A stretch of 64,000 nucleotides of DNA, taken from positions 237,973 to 301,972 of the forward strand of contig JAYRRP010000003.1 in NCBI GenBank assembly GCA_041910055.1, written 5' to 3'. A program made the translations under genes and the position numbers. Below the pieces are notes generated by a model. It ran no database searches, was not told the origin of the DNA, and saw only the letters and a program-made list of their open reading frames with translations. Below are positions 5,808 to 45,699 of the stretch, piece by piece; positions within the stretch are counted from its first letter, which is position 1, and each line of letters opens with the position of its first letter. Source of the stretch: Candidatus Saccharimonadales bacterium. GTDB lineage: Bacteria; Patescibacteriota; Saccharimonadia; Saccharimonadales; JAYRRP01.

Positions 5808-6605
5808 TTAAGAGCGTAGTTCCAGGGTAAGGCATTTGACGCCGCCCCCAGATTTTTGGAATTCACCGATAGGAGTAGGGAAGACCTGCATACCTTTTTG
5901 CTTGTAGGTGTCAATTAAGCCGGTGGCACGGTCGCTGAGCACGATATTATGTCCGTCACTCATAGCGTTTAAGCCATAGGCATAGGCATCTTCGTGGCTA
6001 GATTCAATGACATTTGGAACCACTGCGTGAATATCTCTCAGGCTCTCTGCGCTGAAAAGAGAAGGGTAAAGGGCGACAGTTTCTTTATCGACAATCGTAA
6101 GAGCAGTATCGAGATGGTAAAAACTGGCATTCGTGAGCTGCAAACTGATGACTTTGTATCCGAAAAACTCGGCAATTTCACGATGGGCAGCTTTATCGCT
6201 ACGCCATGGATAACCAGCAAAAATTATATCGTTCCAAACTAGAGCATCACCTTCGCCTTCGAAATCTGCTTTTGGTTTGAAAATATCGCTATAGCCAGCG
6301 GACTTGAACCATTTGTCATCATATTCGGTTTCTGGTTGACGTTCAGGAGAGCGAAATTGACTGAGGGCTACCTTACTACCGATAACTAGGCCAGCATTTG
6401 CGGTAAAAACCATATCCGGCAGATGCTCAATAGGGGGCTGCAACTTAACATTCCAGCCGAGCTTATCTTTGTAGATTGATGATAGCTGCTGCCACTGCAA
6501 GCGGGCCACATTACTATTTATCTGGTTGTTGGTGTGCATCCAAGGGTTGATTTCGTACTCAATATCAAAAAAATCGGGCGCACACATAAGCACAGATAAA
6601 GGCAT
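5808..6605 (-). CDS. amidinotransferase/DDAH-type (pentein superfamily) enzyme
   Basis: C-terminal GGGVKCLT catalytic-Cys motif and pentein-like layout. Start moved to ATG 6605 (MPLSV...), which lies 7 nt after a minus-strand TATACT (6613-6618). Confidence 0.7.
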   Translation of the reverse strand: MPLSVLMCAPDFFDIEYEINPWMHTNNQINSNVARLQWQQLSSIYKDKLGWNVKLQPPIEHLPDMVFTANAGLVIGSKVALSQFRSPERQPETEYDDKWFKSAGYSDIFKPKADFEGEGDALVWNDIIFAGYPWRSDKAAHREIAEFFGYKVISLQLTNASFYHLDTALTIVDKETVALYPSLFSAESLRDIHAVVPNVIESSHEDAYAYGLNAMSDGHNIVLSDRATGLIDTYKQKGMQVFPTPIGEFQKSGGGVKCLTLELRS

Positions 6606-6666
6606 AACCATAAGTATATAACACTGTGAAACCGTAGCGGATGTGAGAGTATATCAGCATCATCGC

Positions 6667-7048: not shown

Positions 7049-8719
7049 ATGGCAAAGAAAGTATTTTATGACGAGGATGCCCGCCGACGCGTACTTGGCG
7101 GCGCCCAAGCACTCTATGACGCAGTCAAAACAACTATGGGTCCGAAAGGCCGCAATGTAGTTATTAGTAAAAGCTATGGCAATCCAACTGTAACGCACGA
7201 TGGGGTGACGGTTGCCAAAGGTGTTGAACTTGAAGACGTTGATGACGAAACATTGGGCTATAAGGTTGGCGCCGAACTTATTAAACAAGCAGCAAGCAAA
7301 ATGAACGATATGGCTGGCGACGGAACTACCACCGTAACTGTCCTTACATACCACTTACTAAATGAAGCAAATAAGCTCATTGCAGCTGGCCACAACCCTA
7401 TGCAACTCAGAAAAGGTCTGGAAGCTGCTGCACACACCGTGCTTACGAAGTTGGACAGTTTGTCAGAAGACATTAAGGACAAGAAATCCCGTGTGGCTGA
7501 GGTAGCAACAATTAGTGCTGGTGATGCTGAGATTGGCTCTTTGATAGCTGATGTGATTGAGAAAGTCGGCAAGGAAGGGGTTGTGACAGTTGAAGAAGGT
7601 CAGGGTCTCAATCTAGAGAGTGAAGTAGTCGAGGGCTTTACGATGGATCGTGGCTTCGTGAGTCCATACATGGTAAGCGATACTGCCCGTATGGAAGCAG
7701 CTGTTGATAAGCCAGCTATTGTGATAACCGACAAAAAGATCAGCTCTATACAAGAGTTTTTACCCTTACTTGAAAAACTAGCCCAAGCTGGCAAGAAGGA
7801 TCTGGTGCTTATTGCCGAAGATGTAGAGGGTGAGGCTCTCGCGACGTTGGTACTCAATAAACTCAAAGGTGTCTTTAACACCGTAGCAGTCAAAGCACCA
7901 GCATATGGCGATCGACGAAAGGATGTCTTGCAAGATATCGCGGTACTAACTGGTGCGACTGTTATTACAGAGGATCGTGGTTATACTTTTGAAAATGCCG
8001 AGTTAGATATGGTTGGTAGTGCCCGAAAAATAATTGTCACTAAAGATGACACGACAATTATTGAAGGAGGCGGGAATACCACTGAGGTGAGTGCTCGTAT
8101 TGACCAAATTGCTCACCAAGTTGCTGTAGCGACAAGTGAGTATGACAAAGAAAACCTTGAGAAGCGTCGTGCTGCGTTAAGTGGCAAGGTAGCGGTGATT
8201 AAGGTAGGTGGAGCTACTGAGACAGAAATTGAGGAAAAGAAGTTTCGGGTTGATGATGCGGTAGCGGCAGTGAAAGCTGCCCTTGATGAGGGCGTGGTGC
8301 CAGGTGGGGGCGTAACGCTTGTTAACTTAGCTGACGCTGTCGGCCAAGTCCAAAAAGCTGCTGCGCGTGCTGAGGATGATGCGCTTAGTAATGGTAAGTC
8401 TCTTTTGAAGCGGGCTTTGGAGCAACCATTCCGTATTCTGCTGACAAATTCAGGATTAAATGCTGACGAATGGCTGCCAGCAGTACGGTCAGCCAAAGTA
8501 GGACAGGGTATTGACGTGAATAATTCTGGTAAACTAGTGGATCTGAAGTCCAAAGGTATTGTTGATCCGACTAGAGTTACCAAAGAAGCAATCCAAAACG
8601 CTGTTTCTATCGCCGGTACGGCTATGACAATGGGCGCGTTGGTAGTAGACATTCCAGAAAAAGAACCAGCTGTACCTGCCGGTGGTGGTATGCCAGGCGG
8701 TGGCATGGGAATGATGTAA
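7049..8719 (+). CDS. groEL: chaperonin GroEL
   Basis: 556 aa, AKKVFYDEDAR..., GDGTTT motif, C-terminal GGMPGGGMGMM tail, SD AGGAGG. Confidence 0.97.
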   Translation: MAKKVFYDEDARRRVLGGAQALYDAVKTTMGPKGRNVVISKSYGNPTVTHDGVTVAKGVELEDVDDETLGYKVGAELIKQAASKMNDMAGDGTTTVTVLTYHLLNEANKLIAAGHNPMQLRKGLEAAAHTVLTKLDSLSEDIKDKKSRVAEVATISAGDAEIGSLIADVIEKVGKEGVVTVEEGQGLNLESEVVEGFTMDRGFVSPYMVSDTARMEAAVDKPAIVITDKKISSIQEFLPLLEKLAQAGKKDLVLIAEDVEGEALATLVLNKLKGVFNTVAVKAPAYGDRRKDVLQDIAVLTGATVITEDRGYTFENAELDMVGSARKIIVTKDDTTIIEGGGNTTEVSARIDQIAHQVAVATSEYDKENLEKRRAALSGKVAVIKVGGATETEIEEKKFRVDDAVAAVKAALDEGVVPGGGVTLVNLADAVGQVQKAAARAEDDALSNGKSLLKRALEQPFRILLTNSGLNADEWLPAVRSAKVGQGIDVNNSGKLVDLKSKGIVDPTRVTKEAIQNAVSIAGTAMTMGALVVDIPEKEPAVPAGGGMPGGGMGMM

Positions 8720-8872: not shown

Positions 8873-9304
8873 ATGGTGTGGAATCCTTTTCGTCGCTACC
8901 GAAATGACATGGACACTGGTACGGTGCCTTCAGGCGTACAGGAATATTACCAATCAGAGAGAGGCGAACGAATGGGAGTTGCCTGGCTAATCGCTTTTGT
9001 TTCTTTAATCGTTACTATTCTCGTTGTTTTACTACTCTTCTTCGGTGGGCGTTGGATATATCGAAAAATTACCAATCATAATAAATCTACTACGGCTCCT
9101 ACCTCACAAACTAGTAATTCTAATGTGGGTAATAATAGCGGTAATACTTCAACAGGGAACAACAATACGCCCGGTGGGAGTGGCCAACCTGCCCAGAATC
9201 CTAGCCAGAACAATACTACCTCGCCGACTACTGGTCCTTCTACTACGCCTGCAACGGGAGATACTACTGAAATACCTCGGACAGGTCCCGAAACTGACGA
9301 ATAA
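8873..9304 (+). CDS. membrane-anchored low-complexity protein
   Basis: SD GGGAG, one N-terminal TM (VAWLIAFVSLIVTILVVLLLFFG), then an Asn/Thr/Ser/Pro-rich tail. Confidence 0.45.
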   Translation: MVWNPFRRYRNDMDTGTVPSGVQEYYQSERGERMGVAWLIAFVSLIVTILVVLLLFFGGRWIYRKITNHNKSTTAPTSQTSNSNVGNNSGNTSTGNNNTPGGSGQPAQNPSQNNTTSPTTGPSTTPATGDTTEIPRTGPETDE

Positions 9305-9500
9305 CCCTCTTTAGCGCCAAAAAGCTAAATATCTTACAGCACACCCTAGTACTCTGGGTTGTAATAATAGGCAGACATTCCAGTGATGTTATGGCTGGGG
9401 TAAGGAGAGGAGAATAGAGAAGGGAGGTCATCCAAGTAAAAGAGGCCATTTAACTGCGAAAAACAAATAAAAGAGATTAAGGTGAATATGGGAGGGGAAG

Positions 9501-9716
9501 ATGCAAGTTTCATTAACGCGCCAGGATTTACAAGGGGCTTTGGATTATGCCAAAAACCGTCTGGTTGAGCGATTGGTGACGAAACAGGAATTGCAGGCAG
9601 CAGTAGGTTCAGTAAAAAGCTATCTGTCTACCACTGTAGCTGAGGTACACCAACGCGAGACTCAATGGTCTAAGCAGGCACTCTTGCAATCAGGGCAGGC
9701 ATTGCGGCAGCTCTAA
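9501..9716 (+). CDS. hypothetical coiled-coil protein (possibly the 5' part of a frameshifted gene)
   Basis: SD GGGAGGGG; 71 aa. Heptad-like sequence continues in the +1 frame to 9822. Confidence 0.35.
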   Translation: MQVSLTRQDLQGALDYAKNRLVERLVTKQELQAAVGSVKSYLSTTVAEVHQRETQWSKQALLQSGQALRQL

Positions 9717-9850
9717 TAGTATTGAGGCACGTTTGGCTCTACTTGAAACACAGTTAAGGCTGTTAACTAGCTCAATAAGCCGCCTTGAAGTCTTTAACGT
9801 TGAGCAGCCGTCGCAAACCTAGTGAGAGACCAAAAGTTATCAGTTAACCT

Positions 9851-18498: not shown

Positions 18499-18576
18499 AG
18501 CCCGCGTATAATATTAAAGATAAGCACTTTCTAAACCTTTATATTGTTGTATACTAATGCTTCGAACAGGAGCTCT

Positions 18577-18996
18577 ATGGCAGATGATCAAGAAGTAACT
18601 TCCCAAAAATCAAAGATTATTTCTCGTAAAGAGGTAAAACTTAATGTGCCAGTACTTCGGGTACCCGCCCCTTTTCAGGGTTTTGTTGATTTTGTCCGCC
18701 AACAGGGGGTGATTGGACTTGCAGTTGGGTTAGTACTTGGTTCAGCAGCCAAAACTGTAGTGGATTCATTGGTAGCAAATGTATTTAACCCAATTATAGG
18801 TCTGCTTACTGGTGGTATTGACTTGAGTCAAAAATATATTTGCCTACAGCATGACAGTGTGGGTGTATGCACTGCGAAGTTAGGGTATGGACGTCTTATT
18901 AGTGACATCATTGCCTTTTTAACGGTTGCATTCGTAATGTTCTTAGTTGTCCACATGCTGAAACTTGACCGTTTAGATAAGAAAAAAGCGGCATAA
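18577..18996 (+). CDS. mscL: large-conductance mechanosensitive channel
   Basis: FVDFVRQQGVIGLAVGLVLG...NPIIGLL is typical MscL. ATG 18577 is preceded by AGGAG. Confidence 0.85.
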   Translation: MADDQEVTSQKSKIISRKEVKLNVPVLRVPAPFQGFVDFVRQQGVIGLAVGLVLGSAAKTVVDSLVANVFNPIIGLLTGGIDLSQKYICLQHDSVGVCTAKLGYGRLISDIIAFLTVAFVMFLVVHMLKLDRLDKKKAA

Positions 18997-19025: not shown

Positions 19026-19034
19026 TGCTATACT
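19026..19034 (+). promoter_or_regulatory. extended -10 (TGcTATACT) of a short leader transcript upstream of pyrB
   Basis: TGCTATACT at 19026-19034, about 8 nt before the AGGAG of the leader ORF. Confidence 0.45.
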
Positions 19035-19054
19035 CACCAGCCAGGAGCGAAAGC

Positions 19055-19159
19055 ATGAGCACGCACAACAATTTTGTAAAGCAAACGTGGAGCGACGGGA
19101 AACCGTCGCTTTTTTTATGGGGAGGACATGATGGAAGCAATGCCGCCAGAACCAATTAA
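19055..19159 (+). CDS. candidate 34-aa leader peptide running through the pyrB attenuator
   Basis: AGGAG (19043-19047) lies 7 nt before ATG 19055. The ORF MSTHNNFVKQTWSDGKPSLFLWGGHDGSNAARTN crosses the terminator stem and T-tract and ends inside pyrB in another frame. Confidence 0.3.
   Translation: MSTHNNFVKQTWSDGKPSLFLWGGHDGSNAARTN
19091..19117 (+). terminator. intrinsic terminator/attenuator 10 nt upstream of the pyrB start
   Basis: AGCGACGG-GAAA-CCGTCGCT forms an 8-bp stem with a GNRA-type loop, followed by TTTTTTA. Confidence 0.75.
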
Positions 19160-20189
19160 TGGCGATTTTACTGGCAAGGATATCATATCTATTAGTCAGT
19201 TTGATCGACCAGATGTGCAGCGGCTATTCCATGAAGCTGAGGCAATGGGTCGCTTGGATGATACACAGGCAGAAAACTTTGAACAGGTGCCAGACGGCAG
19301 TGATTTGCTGCGAGGAAAACGGCTGGCTAACTTGTTTTATGAGCCCTCTACTCGTACTTCATCTTCCTTTGCTGCTGCAGCGCAAGCCCTAGGCGGTTCT
19401 GTGATTTCCATTAATGAAGTGAACTATTCTTCTGTTGCCAAAGGTGAGGACCTAGAAGACACTGTGCGTACTCTTGAACAATATGCTCACATGGTTGTTC
19501 TTCGCCACAAAGAAGTCGGTTCGGCGACGCTCGCGGCGGCGGCGATTGAAAAACCGCTTATCAATGCCGGTGATGGAGTAGGTGAACACCCAACCCAAGC
19601 TCTACTGGATCTCTACACAATTCATGAGGAACGAGGACACATCGATGAGTTAAATGTTACCTTAATGGGTGACCTTAAACATGGCCGAACGGTACATTCG
19701 CTAGCCCGTCTCCTCTCAAAATATGACGCAACCCTTAACTACGTCTCACCTGAATCTCTAGCGATGCCATCACATATAGTAAAAGAACTGGAAGCGGAAG
19801 GGATTGTCCAAAACCAAACTTCAAACCTAAATGAAGTGCTACCTGATACTGACGCATTGTATATGACAAGAGTGCAGAAGGAACGTTTTGAGGATCAAAA
19901 TGAGTACTAAGCGGTACAAGGTTCATATGTTATCGACTCTCCTACGATGATGCGTGCACCAGCTAACATGGTACTCATGCATCCTTTACCGCGTGTAGGC
20001 GAGATTGATAAACAAGTAGATAATGATCCTAGAGCGGCTTATTTTCGACAAATGAAATACGGTTTGCATATTCGCATGGGTTTGCTTGCGCTTGTAAATG
20101 GAAAAACTCTATTACAACGGGAGAGGCCTACGCCGAATCAACTATCACTTGAAGGGATGACTCCATGGGAGATGGCAATTGGCGCGTAA
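19128..20189 (+). pseudogene. pyrB: aspartate carbamoyltransferase catalytic chain interrupted by one in-frame TAA (19908-19910)
   Basis: ORFs 19128-19910 and 19947-20189 are in the same frame. STRTS, HPTQ, GDLKHGRTVHS and ...[10 protein letters not shown]... motifs are all present. Through-translation reads ..[32 protein letters not shown]. Confidence 0.85.
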
Positions 20190-20553
20190 GTTAACACCCG
20201 AACAATACCGGGTCTTACGTCAAAAGGGTACCGAGGCGCCGTTTACAGGTAAGTTTCTTCATCATAAAGCCGAGGGTACCTATGTATGTGCAGGCTGCGG
20301 AGCAGTCTTATTCTCAAGTCAGCAAAAATTTGATTCCGGTAGCGGCTGGCCCAGTTTTTATGATGTGGCCAAAAGTGGCAATGTTGAACTCAAAACAGAT
20401 AAATCGCACGGAATGAGCAGAGTAGAAGTGCTATGCCATCAATGTGGTGGTCATTTAGGACACGTGTTTGATGATGCGCCACAACAGCCTACAGGTAAGA
20501 GGTATTGCATTAATTCGTGCGCACTTGATTTTAAGCCAGATAAGACAAACTAA
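20179..20553 (+). CDS. msrB: peptide-methionine (R)-S-oxide reductase
   Basis: [18 protein letters not shown], CxxC...CxxC zinc site and GHLGHVFDD are typical MsrB. TTG start after GGGAG. Confidence 0.9.
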
Positions 20554-38025: not shown

Positions 38026-39057
38026 CTAGTACTTCTTAATTAAGTTTCGCCGGTTAAGCCAAGCCAGCTCATGTTTTTCGCCGAGCCAAAAAGCGAATAA
38101 TATTATTGCTACCACCGCATAGATTTGCCAGATAAGATAGAGCGGGGATCGTCCTGAAGGAAACTTTGGCCGAGTTGGCGAGGCGCCCCCAGCCAATCCG
38201 GATTTGTCATAGACAATGGCCATAACTTGCAAAAAGGTCTCGTGGCTATCTTTATCGGTTGCCTTTAATTCAACTGTAAAAGTCCCGGCTTGCTGATACG
38301 CATGCTGGAGCGTAATTTTTCCACTTGATGAGATACTTTTTAGATCTTGCTGACCATCCCCCCACTTTATAAGTAAGGCGTAGGGAGGGCTGCCATTAAT
38401 AAGTTCGAATTCCCACTCAAGGTTATCAGTTAATCTCACCCCCTTTACTCCAGTACTAGTGGTCATAATAAATTGCATAGTAGCCAATTGCTGTTGCGCG
38501 TCCCTTGAGGTTGGGCGAGAGCCGATCTGAGAGTTACTGTACCCGCCATTTCCGGTATTCTTTTGGTATATGACGGTCACATCTGAAGAATCAGGACCTG
38601 GTTGATCAGCAAAATCGTAATTACGGGCACGTAAGATGTTTTGTCCTTCCAGCAGACTCACCAGAAGCTGGAAACTGCCAGAATTGTTACAGATTGTACT
38701 GCCGGCGAACACATCATTTCGCCAAATTTTCACTACTAGATTTGGACCACATGTACCGCTAATAGCAATGGGAGTATCATGGACTACCTGGCCATTGGTG
38801 GGGCTCGTTATGGTAGCTGGAGTAGTTGGTGGCGGTCCGGCTACTACTCCTGATATATCCATTGAGCCGTTATAAGTAAGCGTAAGTGCTTGACTAATAA
38901 TGGGGGTGACACAAGCGAAGATTACCCCGCTAATAAACATAATAAGAGCGAGAGTCCAATACGAAGTATGGAAATGTGGCAATAACTTTCCGCTATGTTT
39001 GTGAGGACTGAAGCGTCTTGTGCGATTTTTATTTTTCGTGGCAGAGCGCCGGGACAT
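38026..39057 (-). CDS. two-TM surface protein with Ig-like and PKD-like domains and a His-rich N-terminal motif
   Basis: HKHSGKLLPHFHTSY precedes TM1. Ig-like PTNGQVV..TPIAISGTC...; PKD-like WGDGQ...HAYQQAGTFTVELKATD; C-terminal TM. Confidence 0.6.
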   Translation of the reverse strand: MSRRSATKNKNRTRRFSPHKHSGKLLPHFHTSYWTLALIMFISGVIFACVTPIISQALTLTYNGSMDISGVVAGPPPTTPATITSPTNGQVVHDTPIAISGTCGPNLVVKIWRNDVFAGSTICNNSGSFQLLVSLLEGQNILRARNYDFADQPGPDSSDVTVIYQKNTGNGGYSNSQIGSRPTSRDAQQQLATMQFIMTTSTGVKGVRLTDNLEWEFELINGSPPYALLIKWGDGQQDLKSISSSGKITLQHAYQQAGTFTVELKATDKDSHETFLQVMAIVYDKSGLAGGASPTRPKFPSGRSPLYLIWQIYAVVAIILFAFWLGEKHELAWLNRRNLIKKY

Positions 39058-39088
39058 GTGTCAATTATATCATTGCGTGCGTCGGCGT

Positions 39089-40084
39089 TTACTTGTTTCT
39101 TGATTTTCGGATTATATAGCGGTTATATCGTTTTAAGGTGAAACCAAACAGCAGGATTACTGTTATTACGAGTGCCAGGATGGCGAACAGTAGTTTCCAA
39201 GGGATAATCCAAAAGGTAATTTCGCGGGCAAGATTCTGTCCGGAATTGCCGTATGTTAGTTGTAGCTTTGCTTTGAAGCGGCCAATGAGCCAAGGCTTGT
39301 TCCATGTTTGCTCAAAGCGTCTGATACTTTTGGGTAACACATTTTTTGGCGGATCGTTGACGGGGAGGGAAGCAACCGTTTTACCAAATAAATTTTTTAC
39401 TTCAACAGTTCCTTTTGTTTTGACATGAATATTACCTGTATTTTGGATCCTCTCTACAAAGGTGAGGGGGCCTCGTTCAAAAAAGCTGCGTTGATACTCA
39501 TTCTGGCTGGCGTAAAAACTGGCGATTTGAGCTGATTCTTTCACGTTACCTGAGACTCGTATCAGTACCAGTGTACCAATACTGGCAGATAGGGCGACTG
39601 CGCTATCATCGTTTTCAAGTTCTGGCGGGACGCCGCTAAATCGCACTACTCCGTAATGACCGCCCGGCTCGGCATCACCTGGAACATTGATGGTTACAGG
39701 TATTACTTTGCTTTCTTGTGTCTTGAAAAGATTATTGGGTATAGACGCAACCCAGTGCCGCATCGAGAAGGTTTGATTCTCTGGTGAGTCTTGTAGGAAT
39801 ATTTCCGGGTCACCAGACTCATTTTTGGCACCAAAATCATTTACTTGGGCTTTCGCCAAAAGTGACCCTGAAGTCGTATTTTTTAACTTGAGATTAATCG
39901 TATAACTTTTCCCGGGATCAGCATTAAGTTCAAGCAGTACAGGGGATATCTGAAAGCCTTGACCATTTGACGAAGGAGTGGACTGCGCCCATGCCCATGA
40001 AGCTATATTGAATACGGTTGAGCCTATAATAAGAAGACTTGCAGTAAATCCAAAAACCAAGCGGGCAAAGCGGCGTTGTCTCAT
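39089..40084 (-). CDS. CscA-like cell-surface protein (DUF916 + DUF3324-like architecture)
   Basis: Signal peptide, GFQISPV..., AEPGGHYGVVRF, IQNTGN..., LPKSIRRFE, C-terminal TM plus a basic tail. Paralog of 41762-42676. Confidence 0.6.
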   Translation of the reverse strand: MRQRRFARLVFGFTASLLIIGSTVFNIASWAWAQSTPSSNGQGFQISPVLLELNADPGKSYTINLKLKNTTSGSLLAKAQVNDFGAKNESGDPEIFLQDSPENQTFSMRHWVASIPNNLFKTQESKVIPVTINVPGDAEPGGHYGVVRFSGVPPELENDDSAVALSASIGTLVLIRVSGNVKESAQIASFYASQNEYQRSFFERGPLTFVERIQNTGNIHVKTKGTVEVKNLFGKTVASLPVNDPPKNVLPKSIRRFEQTWNKPWLIGRFKAKLQLTYGNSGQNLAREITFWIIPWKLLFAILALVITVILLFGFTLKRYNRYIIRKSRNK

Positions 40085-40105
40085 TCTATGGTTATTATAA
40101 CAGGG

Positions 40106-41164
40106 CTAGAAGGTGGCAGTGCAGATGTAGGTGTAGGTGCCAGTATAGGTGCCCGGTTCTGTGGTGCCAGCAATATTGGCGATGTATGAGACGGTAAATT
40201 TAGTAGCATTGGAGGCAGCACTTTTGCTTACGACAGTGTTGCCAGTAACAAATTTAAAACTGTCTATTGTGCCATAACCAGTTCCATAGGTAAGGTTTGT
40301 GGTGTCAGTTGGATCAGTTCCCACATTTGGGGTGGCGTTGTCCCGCACGTTAATTCCGAATTGTTCGCTGCCCTGGGATGACGCTGAGCCGGATCCAGAA
40401 GTGATGGCGTCTATGGTATTTCCGCCTGACGTGAGTGTGGCGCCGTTGATGGTAATTGCGTAGCCGCTGCTGCCGTTAGTGGAAGCTGCCATTACTGATG
40501 TACCGTTACCAGTTGAGGTAGTAGTGAGATTACCGAGCGAAACTGATGTACCAGAAATTGTTCCACAATCTGTGCCTGTTATAGAGGTACCGGCACAAAA
40601 GGTCAATGTTTCATCAACTGAAGCAGAGACAGTGATCTGGCTGGCAGTGCTTGTCGCTACCGTGCCGGAGTCTACGGCCGTCGTCCAGGCGTCGTCCGAA
40701 TAGGTAGTGATACGAGCAAAAAAGCTAGTATTGTTTGCTGTTGGATTGGTAACATTCCCAAAAGTAATGGTAGTAGTACCGGAGGGCGCAGCCGAGTTGC
40801 CGGTCTTTTTAAGACGAAGTTTGCCAGCAGTCGAAGTGTTCACTGTCCACCCGGAGGCATCACCAAGATTCGTTGGTTGCGAGGGGAGGGTAGTGCTTGA
40901 GTTTGAGAAGCCAGAGGGAGTGCTGCAGCTGCCGCTGGCAGTGGTGCAAATAACTGCTTCAGCCGATTGCAGGGTAGTACCCGAAGGAAGCGTCATAGTA
41001 AAGGTGTAGGTGACCCCGGTGGCAGCGCCTGCAGAATCAGATAAGGTGAGCTTGCGACCAGTAATCTGTGCGGCAGAAACAGTAAGAGGAAGCAGTGCGT
41101 AAGCAACAAGTGCAAGGGATAAGGCAAGTGCCAGCGGTCGGGTAATTAAGGTGTTTTTTACCAT
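40106..41164 (-). CDS. secreted Thr/Ser/Gly-rich beta protein, WxL-like
   Basis: Signal peptide ...LTVSA/AQ; SSGYAITINGATLTSGGNTI; C-terminal EPGTYTGTYTYICTATF resembles the WxL C-terminal G.Y..T(L/V)TW motif. Confidence 0.5.
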   Translation of the reverse strand: MVKNTLITRPLALALSLALVAYALLPLTVSAAQITGRKLTLSDSAGAATGVTYTFTMTLPSGTTLQSAEAVICTTASGSCSTPSGFSNSSTTLPSQPTNLGDASGWTVNTSTAGKLRLKKTGNSAAPSGTTTITFGNVTNPTANNTSFFARITTYSDDAWTTAVDSGTVATSTASQITVSASVDETLTFCAGTSITGTDCGTISGTSVSLGNLTTTSTGNGTSVMAASTNGSSGYAITINGATLTSGGNTIDAITSGSGSASSQGSEQFGINVRDNATPNVGTDPTDTTNLTYGTGYGTIDSFKFVTGNTVVSKSAASNATKFTVSYIANIAGTTEPGTYTGTYTYICTATF

Positions 41165-41205
41165 TTTTACTGTAAGCAGTTTAATTGGTAGTATAGTAAC
41201 AGGCT

Positions 41206-41775
41206 ATGCATCAAAAAACAAATCAGGTCAAGAGAAAATTACGCAGGTATATAAACGTGCTTGTCATCGGGGTATTTGTGGCTTTCTTAGGTAAGGTGGC
41301 GGCACAGCCATACGGCCAAGGGAAGTATAACGAAAACGTACCCTATGGTTCACAAACCTCCTTAACTATCTCTAACAACGGGAATGTATCTATTCCCATT
41401 ACACCTGCCGATACAGCGATTCTAGGGACTGGCTCGAGTGTAGTCACAGTGACGAGTACGGATGTGGTTGGGTATAAGCTCTATATTCGGGCGAATCAAG
41501 CGACCACGAATTTGGTAAATGGGCCAGATACTATCCCGGCAAGTGCTAACGGTACACCTGCGGCGTTGGCGGTTAATACCTGGGGCTATAACACGGACGC
41601 TTCAAGTAACTTTACTGGTATTATTCTAAGTGACGCATTAATCAAGACTGCCAATGGCCCTTTTCCGTCTGGTGATAATACGACAGTTACCTATGGGATA
41701 AAAATAGATAATTCTAAACCAGCCGGCGTATACTCAGCCACTGTAATGTACACCGCCGCGCCTATGACTGATTGA
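41206..41775 (+). CDS. small secreted WxL-like beta protein
   Basis: Signal peptide; VVGYKLYIRAN...; C-terminal PAGVYSATVMYTAAPMTD. Opposite strand to its neighbours; 3' end overlaps the 41762 gene by 14 nt. Confidence 0.5.
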   Translation: MHQKTNQVKRKLRRYINVLVIGVFVAFLGKVAAQPYGQGKYNENVPYGSQTSLTISNNGNVSIPITPADTAILGTGSSVVTVTSTDVVGYKLYIRANQATTNLVNGPDTIPASANGTPAALAVNTWGYNTDASSNFTGIILSDALIKTANGPFPSGDNTTVTYGIKIDNSKPAGVYSATVMYTAAPMTD

Positions 41776-42676
41776 TGTGTTTCTTTTGTTTATACCGATG
41801 GGAACGCCTATCGGTCAAGTATTTTCGCACAAGCCAAATGACAGCAATGAACAAAAGGATAGAGAAACAAATAAGCCAAAAGATAGGGAATACCACTACC
41901 CAAGTTGACTTAACAGACTTTGTTTGGTCTGCAAATCTCATGTCAGCCTGTAGCTTATAAATACCGGGTAAGCGGGGGGATTTTAGGGTTGTTTTAAACG
42001 AGCGGATAGTACCAGGCAGGAGTAAGCCATGTACACGTACTTGCGATAATTCAGAGTTCCAGATTGTCTTAAGACGTACCCACCCATCAATACTATAGTG
42101 CGTATTACCAGTATCTTCGATCCTAAGCGTGGCCGGTATAGCACCCCTCTTTTGCCAGAAGGGTGTGCGAAAGTCTGTAAAACGTGCAGATTTTACAAGC
42201 TGTCCGGCTACCTCAAAATAGAAGAGAGAAGCAACCCGTTTAATTTGGACGATGTCTTTGTTGGTATCACTGGATGGCTCAATCTGAGCAAAAATAGCTA
42301 CATAATGTCCGCCGGGTTCGGCTAATGGTGGCGTTTTAATTTGGTAATTTATAAGTTGAGAAGAATTTGCCGGCATGTGAATTTTGGTTTGATCAAAACG
42401 AAACCAGTTACTAGCTGATAATGGATTATTCGGTTGATCAAATTCTTGATCGTAGGCTTCATTTTTTACCGTAAAGTTTGCAGCATAAACGTCGACGTTG
42501 AAATCTACGTCGCCACTGTTTTTTAACTTTATAGAACCCATCGACGTCTGGCCAGGGACAAGTTTGATGTCTTGTCTGAGAGGGCTAATTGTCAAGCTTT
42601 CGCGGCTAGCTAAAGCACTGGTTGGTATACCCAAAAATAAGATAAATAAAAAGCTAAAAATTAATCGTTTCGACAT
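41762..42676 (-). CDS. CscA-like cell-surface protein (DUF916 + DUF3324-like), paralog 2
   Basis: ATG 42676 (MSKRLIFSFLFILFLG signal). LTISPL..., AEPGGHYVAIF, IEDTGN, LPGTIRSFK, C-terminal TM plus a basic tail. Confidence 0.6.
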   Translation of the reverse strand: MSKRLIFSFLFILFLGIPTSALASRESLTISPLRQDIKLVPGQTSMGSIKLKNSGDVDFNVDVYAANFTVKNEAYDQEFDQPNNPLSASNWFRFDQTKIHMPANSSQLINYQIKTPPLAEPGGHYVAIFAQIEPSSDTNKDIVQIKRVASLFYFEVAGQLVKSARFTDFRTPFWQKRGAIPATLRIEDTGNTHYSIDGWVRLKTIWNSELSQVRVHGLLLPGTIRSFKTTLKSPRLPGIYKLQADMRFADQTKSVKSTWVVVFPIFWLICFSILLFIAVIWLVRKYLTDRRSHRYKQKKHINQS

Positions 42677-42687
42677 TGGATGATGCG

Positions 42688-43836
42688 TCAAAAATCCGTT
42701 CCCATCAGCGGGGCGTTGTGGAGCTGACTATGAATAATCAACCTCGGACCAACAGCAGTCGAAGTTACAGCTGCACTGGCTCGCAGCTGCGGATTGTAAT
42801 TAGTGGCATTAGCCAAAGTGACTGCCGAAGTGGAACGAACCCGTGTTTTGGTCGTCGAGGTCGTACTTATAGTTACTAGATCAGTACTGCCATCATTGAG
42901 ATCAAGGTAAGCCGTGTTAGCACCACTGATAAGCATGGTAGCCTCAAAGTAGACAGTATTGGTAGCCACAAACCATTCGCTGGTATTCCAAGTAATCAAT
43001 CCATCAAGACTTGTATCTGTCGTTGCCGAAGCGGTCAATTGGGCTGTACGCAGCGGGTAATGTGTTTCTGTTTTCGTAAAGCCTGTTTGTTGAATAATAA
43101 TTTTACAACTGCCGATTTGAGCATTAAATAAGGCGTTGGCCGATCTAATCCTTGCAATGTAGGTTGTACCATCGGTCAATGTTATTGCTCCAGATCGCGT
43201 ACGAGCACCGGTAGTGCCTGTAACCGAGACTGAAGTTATTTGATTTGAACTAGTATCATAAAGATACGCTGTAGCTGCTATGCCTGCACCAGTCGAGCGG
43301 CAACCGGCTTCGAAATAAATACTAACAGTTCCATCGTACTTACTAGCATCATAGAAGAAACGATATGTAAAGGTGTGATCAACAATAGCCGTACTGGTTG
43401 TGGCCTGTAATTGACCACACAGCGGTATTTGAGTCTCGGTTTTAGTAATGCCGCCAGTTTGAATTACTATTAAACGAGCTGTGTAGAGCGTCGTCGTGAC
43501 TCCGGAAGCTGATCTGATACCTACTATGTAGTTGGTATTGTCTGATAGATTAGCACTAATATCACCAGAGCGGACGACTTGAGTAGTAGTGCTAGTAGTA
43601 GTTACTTCACTGCTGGTGACAAGCGTGCCCGATGTATTAGTTAATCGCGCGTAAGCATTACTTCCGTTACTACTTTTTAAAACCGCTTCAAAATAAACTG
43701 CCACCGTACCATCATAGGCATCGACATCCCAATAGTGCCCTGAAGCATCATTGGTACTTGCTGTCACCGCAGTGGTACTAGTAGTGGTGGCACTTGTTTC
43801 AGAAAACAGGTTGATAACCTTAACTATTTTGGCCAT
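42688..43836 (-). CDS. hypothetical protein made of three tandem ~120-aa repeats, no signal peptide
   Basis: ATG 43836 after an AGGGA SD. Each repeat carries YDGTV.(V/I)YFEA, RSG.I, Y...IRSA and (R/K)(L/I)I(V/I)(I/Q)QTG.TKTET. Confidence 0.6.
   Translation of the reverse strand: MAKIVKVINLFSETSATTTSTTAVTASTNDASGHYWDVDAYDGTVAVYFEAVLKSSNGSNAYARLTNTSGTLVTSSEVTTTSTTTQVVRSGDISANLSDNTNYIVGIRSASGVTTTLYTARLIVIQTGGITKTETQIPLCGQLQATTSTAIVDHTFTYRFFYDASKYDGTVSIYFEAGCRSTGAGIAATAYLYDTSSNQITSVSVTGTTGARTRSGAITLTDGTTYIARIRSANALFNAQIGSCKIIIQQTGFTKTETHYPLRTAQLTASATTDTSLDGLITWNTSEWFVATNTVYFEATMLISGANTAYLDLNDGSTDLVTISTTSTTKTRVRSTSAVTLANATNYNPQLRASAAVTSTAVGPRLIIHSQLHNAPLMGTDF
42721..43797 (-). repeat. three tandem coding repeats (about 43420-43797, 43054-43419, 42721-43053)
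   Basis: Protein-level periodicity: YFEA at residues 49, 175 and 297; RSG/RST at 90, 215 and 335; IRSA/LRASA at 108, 231 and 352. Confidence 0.6.
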
Positions 43837-43854
43837 CAATCATCCCTATTAACG

Positions 43855-45024
43855 TTAGCTAAAATTAAGGTTAGCTGCAGCATAATAATTAGTTCCATCA
43901 TAATAAAAAGTCACTATATCTATTGCACTAACGGCAGTCGACAGAGTCGGAGCCGTTCCACCGGGCCACTTAAAATTAGTCGGCCAGGTACCAATTGTTT
44001 TACTACCTCCCGACCCTTGAATCAAACGCAGCAGAAAATTCCCCGGACCGGGCGGGGCTGTCCAGTTGGTATTAAGATTAACATTAGTGTTATCAATCGT
44101 CATTGATTGTTTTTGGCCGTTATTCCAGTTAATTGTCGGTGCAGTTCCGGAATTGCCATTGCTATACTCTGAGAAATAGACATCCTTGCCAGACATGTTG
44201 ACGTGGCTCTGGGGGGCTATTTTGCCCGTGCCCTTACCGGCAAGTTTAATGTCAATGTTTGTATCATTACCAGTCGCCGAAAGCTGTGGGGAGGTTGTAG
44301 TAGCCGCATTCGTAATAGTCAGCTCATTTACAGCCGAGGCAGTTTGTGAAAACTTGATATATTCATTGCTGTTACCATCAATGATGGAGCCGGTATCCGC
44401 GATCTTTGGAGTTGTCAGGGTTTTATTACTCAATGTCTCGGTGCCCGCAAGCGTTGCTAGGGTAGCGTCATAATCCGGCACGGATAAAGTTCGAGTAGTA
44501 CTGGTAGAAATCGCGCTAACTTCGAAGGCTAGTTTCTTGGTGTTATCACCGTTATCTTTAATGCGAAAAACATTATCGACATACTCATTGCCTCCACTAG
44601 GAGCTGCCCAGCTAGGGAGACCGCTTGCTACAGTGAGCACATCATTGGTCGATCCAATCGCTAAGCGGACAATATTACCACCTGAATCCCGGTAAAAGAC
44701 GTCACCGGTGGCAGCTGAGCCTGCATCATAGTACATTACTCTCCGTCGGTTGCTAGAACCAGAAGTCTGGGTGTAATAAAGTAGTCCGGAAGAATCAACT
44801 TCTAGTGAACCAGCCACTGGCGTAGTTAGAAGCGCAGCGCTAGTCGTGGTGAATGTTAGGGGTGCTAGTGACGAAGTGCCCGCACGAACGGTGATGCCTT
44901 GATGCATACCATTGCTGGCGTTGTCAGATCCAGTGTTGTAATGTTCTTTTCCGAGGAACTGATTAAGAATGGTGCCCCATTGCCCATCATCACCTCCTAC
45001 TGTCGGTAGTCTTTGCTCAGCCAT
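43855..45024 (-). CDS. phage tail-fibre / receptor-binding-protein-like protein, no signal peptide
   Basis: N-terminus LPTVGGDDGQWGTILNQFL and FRIKDNGDNTKKLAFEVSAISTSTTRTLSVPD...TLSNKTLTTP resemble motifs I recall from tail-fibre proteins. C-terminus ..WPGGTAPTLS..IDIVTFYYDGTNYY. Confidence 0.5.
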   Translation of the reverse strand: MAEQRLPTVGGDDGQWGTILNQFLGKEHYNTGSDNASNGMHQGITVRAGTSSLAPLTFTTTSAALLTTPVAGSLEVDSSGLLYYTQTSGSSNRRRVMYYDAGSAATGDVFYRDSGGNIVRLAIGSTNDVLTVASGLPSWAAPSGGNEYVDNVFRIKDNGDNTKKLAFEVSAISTSTTRTLSVPDYDATLATLAGTETLSNKTLTTPKIADTGSIIDGNSNEYIKFSQTASAVNELTITNAATTTSPQLSATGNDTNIDIKLAGKGTGKIAPQSHVNMSGKDVYFSEYSNGNSGTAPTINWNNGQKQSMTIDNTNVNLNTNWTAPPGPGNFLLRLIQGSGGSKTIGTWPTNFKWPGGTAPTLSTAVSAIDIVTFYYDGTNYYAAANLNFS

Positions 45025-45095
45025 ACTTTCTATGTGCTCACTTGCTTTTGATCACGAAAACAGCTTAAAACAGATTGTGCCAGCTGTCAGTGTTA

Positions 45096-45124
45096 ATTAT
45101 AAGGCAAGCATAAGGAGCAGACAA
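45096..45124 (-). promoter_or_regulatory. near-consensus promoter TTGTCT-17 nt-TATAAT for the 45024-41762 operon
   Basis: Minus-strand TTGTCT at 45119-45124, TATAAT at 45096-45101, about 65-nt leader. Confidence 0.55.
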
Positions 45125-45142
45125 AATCAAAGAAACCCCTAT

Positions 45143-45382
45143 TTAGGCTTGGGGTGGTGATTTCCGTGGACTAATAAGCACGTTGAGGTCATCTGCATCG
45201 GCAACAGTATTGGCGCGAGCTACTTGAGCGGCCGTATCGCTTCGCGCGGCAATAATGACTTCACGCACATAATTTTTGAGCAGGCTTTCGCAATCCTTGA
45301 ACCCTACGCTCTTTGCCACTGATAAAAGTTCAACATAAAGAGCAGCAGGAAGTGTTAGGCGAATTTCTTTTTGGTCTCTCAT
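45143..45382 (-). CDS. ribbon-helix-helix (CopG/Arc-like) DNA-binding protein
   Basis: KEIRLTLPAALYVELLSVAK (beta strand plus helix A) and ESLLKNYVREVIIAA (helix B); 79 aa. Confidence 0.5.
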   Translation of the reverse strand: MRDQKEIRLTLPAALYVELLSVAKSVGFKDCESLLKNYVREVIIAARSDTAAQVARANTVADADDLNVLISPRKSPPQA

Positions 45383-45390
45383 CGTCTCTT

Positions 45391-45419
45391 ATGATACGGC
45401 GGAGAGGAGTGAAGCGCAA
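45391..45419 (-). promoter_or_regulatory. promoter TTGCGC-17 nt-TATCAT, 8 nt before the RHH gene ATG (leaderless)
   Basis: Minus-strand hexamers at 45414-45419 and 45391-45396; ATG at 45382. Confidence 0.5.
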
Positions 45420-45431
45420 ACGGTAGTTTAT

Positions 45432-45644
45432 TTAAATTCCGTATTTGCCGTTTCCAAATTTACTTTTGCTCTGTGGTGACGATGGAGTAGAAGGTCTGTG
45501 TAGCTGCTGATTAGTGCGTAATAATGAAGAAATCACTGCGTTTATCCCAATTAAACCGAGCAGAGCCAAACCGATTTCTTTTAAGAAATCCTTGCGGCTC
45601 ATCGGCCGATCCATGATTTTCTGTACGATATCTTTTCTTTTCAT
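45432..45644 (-). CDS. 70-aa protein consisting essentially of a Tat-type signal peptide plus a short tail
   Basis: MSRKDFLKEIGLALLGLIGINAVISS matches S-R-(R/K)-x-F-L-K plus an h-region. Tail ...SKSKFGNGKYGI. Lies 55 nt downstream of tatC. Confidence 0.5.
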   Translation of the reverse strand: MKRKDIVQKIMDRPMSRKDFLKEIGLALLGLIGINAVISSLLRTNQQLHRPSTPSSPQSKSKFGNGKYGI

Positions 45645-45699
45645 GACCCTATTCCGTTATAGCATGAAACCATAAGTATTCAACCAAGAAAGTCTTATA

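Follow-up and report, generated by a model that had tools for sequence, protein, structure and literature searches.

Structure of the disrupted pyrB gene

The stretch of DNA analyzed here, hereafter the window, measures 64,000 nucleotides (nt) and comes from contig JAYRRP010000003.1 (positions 237,973 to 301,972, assembly GCA_041910055.1) of a Candidatus Saccharimonadales bacterium. Its plus strand carries a pyrB gene, coding for aspartate carbamoyltransferase (ATCase), in which the reading frame is broken by one TAA codon. The frame is made by the segment 19128–19910, which measures 260 codons and ends with the TAA, and by the segment 19911–20189; the TAA at 19908–19910 is the sole interruption. 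The N-terminal part of the gene (19128–19907) covers the carbamoyl-phosphate domain and continues for 87 residues into the aspartate domain. The C-terminal part (19911–20189; 92 codons and a terminal TAA) is in frame and conserved, and carries the HPLPRV motif and the C-terminal helix, as well as an extension specific to the lineage. Within this part, a mechanically called open reading frame (ORF) of 80 amino acids (19947–20189, plus strand) begins at a conserved internal methionine, and is a candidate second fragment. Nowhere else in the window does a lone stop divide a protein-family match between two ORFs.

Translation of pyrB is likely to start at the second ATG (19131), which lies 5 nt past a GGGGAGG Shine-Dalgarno (SD) sequence (19119–19125, plus strand; anti-SD duplex of −7.4 kcal/mol) and has been chosen by the gene callers in public collections. 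The truncated product called there measures 259 amino acids (P0002). An exact look-up of the 260-residue product in public protein collections gave no match, because public calls begin at the second ATG; it was picked up as P0002 by the homologue search.

When the TAA is read through conceptually, the product measures 353 residues and matches TIGR00670 with 335 bits (cutoff 236.95) over profile positions 1–302 of 304. Both Pfam domains, OTCace_N and OTCace, are detected in it, and the scores of ornithine carbamoyltransferase (OTCase) models fall far under their cutoffs. The motifs are of the ATCase type: STRTS, HPTQ, GDLKHGRTVHS, TRVQKER (with the equivalents of Arg229 and Gln231) and HPLPRV. 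Apart from the TAA, the region 19128–20189 encodes a full-length PyrB; family match and motifs confirm what a sequence-only reading of this DNA had described, a complete gene with its catalytic motifs in place and the TAA as only lesion. Of the solved structures, those of the human CAD ATCase domain (5g1n, E = 8.7e-95) and of Pyrococcus abyssi ATCase (1ml4, E = 1.2e-89) come nearest. Both alignments extend over the full chain and pass through the position of the stop, at which the residue is Glu in CAD and Leu in P. abyssi. The E. coli enzyme (PDB 1q95_A) is also matched (E = 2.9e-69).

Intact alleles in the species and in the clade

An intact allele of the gene resides in the same species. 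The truncated product shares its 90%-identity cluster with a second member, the protein P0121 (352 amino acids); 14 contigs encode it, six places being shown. The six loci examined come from the runs SRR20074303, SRR17659519, SRR17659520, SRR20608312 and SRR20608313, and from the metagenome-assembled genome (MAG) GCA_041906525.1. They match the window at 98.1–99.0% nucleotide identity over up to 21 kb, and hence belong to the same species. In all six the pyrB sequence is identical, its frame is uninterrupted, and GAA (Glu) is found where the window has TAA. Uninterrupted frames are found also in four Saccharimonadales orthologues (73–76% amino-acid identity), whose codons at the site are GAG, GAC, GAA and GAT, and which are free of lesions. 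The sequence-only reading had proposed to look in orthologues for a sense codon at this site: a Glu or Asp codon is found in all, conspecific strains included, and there are no independent lesions. Since conspecific strains have GAA and orthologues have Glu or Asp codons, the lesion is one G>T transversion, which arose in the line leading to this strain. GAA is thus the ancestral codon, and the stop is confined to this strain.

Orthologues are found in the same gene order as in the window, argS-gdh-mscL-pyrB-[msrB]-PGA_cap-orn, and the argS-gdh-mscL-pyrB position is kept in at least five Saccharimonadales lineages. The nearest relative in the full-length homologue search is P0001, at 76% identity, from the isolate SZ_szas25bin.56 (GCA_041906765.1), a name which might hint at an activated-sludge source, as for Ca. 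Lutisaccharimonas. A scan of GTDB genomes found one member of the clade, and a scan of JGI metagenomes yielded relatives of 65% identity at most. The absence of a close intact allele, as the 76% best hit of the homologue search had it, was a wrong conclusion, as P0121 was found among the cluster members. The 90%-identity cluster is represented by the truncated 259-residue product, which hid the intact allele; this is relevant to pseudogene checks carried out with this database.

Constraint on pyrB

Besides the TAA, pyrB shows neither relaxed constraint nor decay. In an alignment of 27 homologues, none of the 102 invariant columns is altered in the window PyrB; of the 49 near-invariant ones 46 are retained, and the other three carry conservative changes (I>V, V>A, V>M). 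Lineage-specific replacements, counted with three outgroups, number 8 in the window versus 19 in the intact sister lineage. The window and conspecific genes differ at 16 of 1059 positions, the changes being 11 synonymous, 4 non-synonymous and 1 nonsense. The ratio of non-synonymous to synonymous substitution rates (dN/dS, omega) against the intact strain is 0.11 for pyrB and 0.16 for 18 neighboring genes pooled (Fisher p = 0.59); this comparison, also proposed by the sequence-only reading, gives a value no higher in pyrB than in its neighbors. Upstream of the gene, the leader differs from the conspecific one at 2 of 134 positions, and the SD sequence is unbroken. Between species, the proportions of differing non-synonymous (pN) and synonymous (pS) sites measure 0.05–0.28 and 0.64–0.93, respectively; dN/dS is not computable for most pairs because of saturated synonymous sites, and the conspecific comparison has been used instead. 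As the rest of the gene is free of decay, the stop is much younger than the divergence of the strains (~1.5–2%).

Three window-specific replacements (TPE>DSP) form a cluster past the stop and ahead of the next ATG. They were considered as marking an unconstrained gap, which would favor a split gene. The candidate was rejected, since the conspecific strain has the same DSP; the intact conspecific allele having these residues, the cluster predates the stop.

Consequence and origin of the stop

The E. coli PyrB sequence used for alignment fits the 310-residue chains in PDB in length, and its numbering gives Ser52–Thr55. We take the stop to be the equivalent of Ala241 of this sequence, right after Glu239-Tyr240, Tyr260 of the window corresponding to Tyr240. 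The site falls in the aspartate-binding 240s loop, which comprises residues 229–247 of ATCase (PMC13168310). The 260-residue product is devoid of the second half of this loop, of the HPLPR motif, whose H, P, P and R do not vary among the 27 homologues, and of the C-terminal helix. With both motif and helix lost, the product should be inactive, as judged from conservation.

The TAA is probably a very young, strain-specific loss-of-function (null) allele of pyrB. In an uncultured Saccharimonadales species, a G>T transversion would have changed codon 261 of one strain from GAA (Glu) to TAA. Translation would stop after Tyr260, in the middle of the 240s loop, and the resulting allele would be a nascent pseudogene of a gene otherwise kept in the species and in the clade. 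The strain would presumably live on salvaged pyrimidines, as supposed for epibiotic Saccharibacteria. A very recent pseudogenisation had been listed among the possible explanations by the sequence-only reading, and fits the GAA of conspecific strains, the unlesioned orthologues and the unrelaxed constraint.

Some points weigh against a null allele. The TAA is known only from the window MAG and from the Logan assembly of run SRR26835473, that is, from a single sample; both assemblies may share one run, and the TAA could be a consensus error or a minority variant. The ATG found 36 nt downstream of the stop and the perfectly kept C-terminal part match also a functional split, and conservation is the sole basis for calling the 260-residue product inactive. 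A kept C-terminal part is equally expected, nevertheless, of a mutation younger than the next substitution. As for an artefact of sequencing, consensus or assembly, or a minority variant fixed in the assembly of a gene truly reading GAA, its origin in one sample, from reads possibly common to the NCBI MAG and the Logan contig, speaks in favor, as does a gene flawless in all but the TAA. The Logan assembly, however, is 100% identical to positions 9131–29910 of the window (20,780 nt), TAA included. The window reaches past the 56 kb Logan contig, and the truncated product is also recorded on an NCBI contig of 370,840 bp; hence two assemblies, the NCBI MAG and Logan, agree on the TAA. The same base has thus been obtained by two different assemblers, with 20.8 kb around it identical, and at a strain divergence of ~1.5–2% a single nonsense change in a gene with 16 substitutions is nothing unusual. 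Substitution errors which survive the consensus are rare in short-read assemblies, and an isolated G>T in non-repetitive sequence is not a typical error. A sequencing error behind the TAA is unlikely, and artefact or minority variant, taken together, make an improbable explanation. Old and ongoing decay of a relic orphan gene can be discounted almost entirely. Its basis is the lack of other pyr or car genes within the 64 kb, along with the general report that Saccharibacteria lack de novo nucleotide synthesis (PMC7786006). Against it stand the excess of pS over pN between species, the single lesion with an omega of 0.11, the intact gene of five other lineages with synteny and leader conserved, and the finding of near-complete pyrimidine pathways in some wastewater Saccharimonadia (bioRxiv 10.64898/2026.09.16.751625). 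The word relic, used by the sequence-only reading, is not borne out for a gene which has kept its position in at least five lineages, is under purifying selection and features a conserved leader of its own.

It is very doubtful that an active enzyme is still made, either by re-initiation at the ATG at 19947, with fragments 1–260 and 273–353 assembling, or by low-level read-through of the TAA. Re-initiation could exploit the in-frame ATG 36 nt past the stop and the undamaged C-terminal part, and the break falls in the 240s loop. In the AlphaFold2 model of the orthologue P0003 (mean pLDDT, the predicted local distance difference test, of 79, and >90 in the domain holding them) the 12 residues which would be missing, with a pLDDT of ~90, are placed in the end of a short surface helix and in a loop, and not in a core strand; the modeled structure alone does not forbid fragment complementation. 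E. coli ATCase chains are said to tolerate fragment complementation, as well as chymotryptic nicking near Tyr240. Catalytic chains of this enzyme have been put through random circular permutation (Graf and Schachman 1996, as cited in PMC3196576). The ATG at 19947 is not preceded by an SD sequence, however: its duplex measures +0.4 kcal/mol, versus −7.4 for pyrB and −7.3 for msrB, and is weaker than those of 77% of ORF starts and of 85% of internal in-frame ATGs. Re-initiation would omit residues 261–272, half of the aspartate-binding loop would be lost, and no relative has a divided gene, the conspecific strain and all orthologues encoding single chains. Read-through is opposed by the use of the codon. 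Stops of 60 long ORFs in the window are TAA in 33, TAG in 16 and TGA in 11, and TAA, the main terminator, is by no means depleted; it ends groEL (7049–8719), and the TAAG context of the internal pyrB stop terminates six other genes. Both release factors recognize UAA, which leaks least of the stops. No tRNA genes were found in the 64 kb window, so no suppressor tRNA is seen there, and none of the relatives has a stop codon in this place. The dismissal of code reassignment by the sequence-only reading is upheld by these counts; stop read-through and two interacting fragments, which it had left as options, find no support in TAA usage, in the missing SD sequence, or in the lack of tRNA genes in the window. 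An active ATCase naturally split in the 240s loop, made by re-initiation at 19947, is hardly credible. If true, it would be the natural counterpart of the fragment-complementation and circular-permutation experiments carried out with the E. coli enzyme.

The young null allele is the preferred reading, and pyrB of this assembly is to be labeled as pseudogene or disrupted. The finding itself is of minor weight, being another young loss-of-function allele in a host-dependent bacterium. It offers a datable snapshot of the loss of a conserved, regulated biosynthetic gene in one epibiotic strain within the Candidate Phyla Radiation (CPR), as predicted by reductive evolution.

The leader region of pyrB

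The mscL-pyrB intergenic region measures 134–141 nt and holds, in order, the TGCTATACT element, a CCAGGAG motif, a short ORF starting with ATG, and a hairpin followed by a run of 6–7 T residues. The region has been analyzed in the window (19026–19125) and at the loci L002 (9867–10000), L011 (5861–6000), L014 (5005–5145), L015 (5860–6000) and L032 (1–105). The element TGCTATACT (19026–19034, plus strand) resembles an extended −10 promoter sequence. It is invariant in 5 of 5 aligned Saccharimonadales loci, amid diverging intergenic DNA, and may be a promoter, as its invariance suggests. The SD-like CCAGGAG (19041–19047, plus strand), located 7 nt 5' of the leader ATG, is found as CCAGGAG or TCAGGAG in 4 of 5 loci, and as CCAAGGG in L002.

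A short ATG leader ORF resides in every orthologous leader examined, and ends within or past the hairpin. The predicted ORF of the window, MSTHNNFVKQTWSDGKPSLFLWGGHDGSNAARTN, measures 34 codons (19055–19159, plus strand) and crosses the terminator hairpin into pyrB. The L002 ORF measures 26 codons and also crosses the hairpin. ORFs in L011, L014 and L015 measure 13 codons (MLIK[VI]S[CY][YH]IN[KEG]TA), and stop within the 5' arm of the stem. The hairpin of the window, GGAGCGACGG-GAAA-CCGTCGCTTT followed by T7 (19089–19116, plus strand), resembles an intrinsic terminator and ends 14 nt before the pyrB ATG at 19131. It features 10 pairs, 6 of which G-C according to the scan, and folds with −16.6 kcal/mol. 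Equivalent hairpins (−13 to −17 kcal/mol), followed by T6–7 and ending 13–27 nt before pyrB, are found in six lineages with three different stems. Since the T-run lies too close to pyrB to leave space for a promoter, pyrB transcripts must cross the terminator. No Rfam family (best E = 0.3) and no PyrR site were found in the leader.

In its layout, the leader looks like a putative leader-peptide attenuator of the pyrBI type. If confirmed, it would be a rare case of classical attenuation in the CPR, and would provide a handle on the nucleotide metabolism of these bacteria. That the clade retains a stand-alone pyrB, with conserved synteny and behind an attenuator-like leader, is a more interesting lead than the TAA.

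Genomic setting and relatives of pyrB

The gene is flanked upstream by mscL (18544–18996) and downstream by msrB (20179–20553, plus strand; TIGR00357, 173 bits); the same neighbors had been named from the letters alone, and family searches agree. The msrB gene has an SD sequence of its own (−7.3 kcal/mol), which resides inside the 3' extension of pyrB, and the two genes overlap by 11 nt. The C-terminal extension of PyrB measures ~25 residues (window 20100–20189) and is common to L002 and to the conspecific strain. Lineages which feature it also have msrB directly downstream, and the extension region contains the msrB SD sequence and overlaps the msrB start. In L011, L014 and L015, which have no msrB at the locus, PyrB tails are shorter and unrelated.

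The ORFs of the 64 kb window, several of which lack any Pfam match, yielded no pyrimidine-pathway or carbamoyl-phosphate synthase families. The gene had been called an orphan, and this stands for the window, which is the scope of the statement. The nearest PyrB homologues outside the Saccharimonadales are annotated as Anaerolineales or Chloroflexota (61–66% identity). The two other CPR sequences found, from Woesebacteria and Levybacteria, are more distant, at 59% identity. The homologue P0009, the one sampled for its surroundings (L033, 3782–9499), belongs to a pyrC-pyrB-pyrF/E-pyrD cluster. Judging from these matches, pyrB may have been acquired horizontally on its own.

The window is densely filled with housekeeping genes, such as valS, tsaD, a murC-like gene, groES/EL, pgi, argS, gdh, dnaG, sigA, polA, tatC, fpg, holA, rpsT, truB, pnp, the RNase J gene, ftsK, rpsF and ssb. 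A protein of 267 residues resembling DDAH and ADI (5808–6611, minus strand; Pfam DDAH_eukar 2e-14, ADI 1e-10) is encoded next to groES/EL. It is a guanidino-group-modifying enzyme of the amidinotransferase superfamily, and could have a bearing on arginine, citrulline and carbamoyl metabolism in a bacterium which retains ATCase.

Six successive ORFs of 309–389 residues mark the minus strand at 38026–45024, with a plus-strand ORF of 189 residues (41206–41775) in between; none matches Pfam. Several begin with hydrophobic segments resembling signal peptides, and the cluster probably encodes secreted or surface proteins. ORFs 39089–40084 and 41762–42691 are paralogous (26% identity, E = 2e-24), and ORFs 40106–41164 and 39089–40084 are in the same frame, separated by one TAG. 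The longest stretches without ORFs of at least 80 residues are 45025–45699 (675 nt) and 9305–9850 (546 nt). They contain neither Rfam matches nor tRNA genes, and public gene calls place an ORF of 71 residues in the latter. The Rfam scan of the whole window gave no family.

Comparison with known systems

The pyrB leader recalls that of the E. coli pyrBI operon, which serves an enzyme of the same family, and in which a terminator likewise lies upstream of pyrB within a short leader ORF. In E. coli, the attenuator terminator lies inside a leader peptide gene of 135 bp (PMC4824070). The two systems differ in that the pyrB gene of the window is not adjoined by pyrI, and in that the leader sequences are unrelated. 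Unlike in E. coli, the 13-codon leader ORFs of three Saccharimonadales lineages stop inside the stem. The pyrBI attenuator is sensitive to uridine triphosphate (UTP), whereas the Saccharimonadales leader is known from its layout only.

Among Saccharimonadia, pyrimidine biosynthesis genes are encoded also by Ca. Lutisaccharimonas (family UBA4665), found in wastewater and activated sludge, which has near-complete de novo purine and pyrimidine pathways (bioRxiv 10.64898/2026.09.16.751625); the window organism is known here for pyrB only. Human CAD, in which ATCase is a domain of a multi-enzyme protein, and P. abyssi differ from the window in having uninterrupted ATCase chains. The E. coli permutants and fragments engineered in the Schachman laboratory share with the window allele a broken chain, the pieces of which might, in principle, come together. 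Each engineered fragment was provided with expression signals; in contrast, the second piece of the window gene has no ribosome-binding site, and 12 residues would be missing.

The closest parallels are young nonsense pseudogenes and null alleles found within bacterial species. Such alleles are common in host-dependent lineages undergoing genome reduction. The pyrB allele, known from metagenome assemblies only, shows no difference in kind: it has in common with them a single premature stop, an intact conspecific allele and no further decay, and it likewise hits a biosynthetic gene which is dispensable when the product is scavenged.

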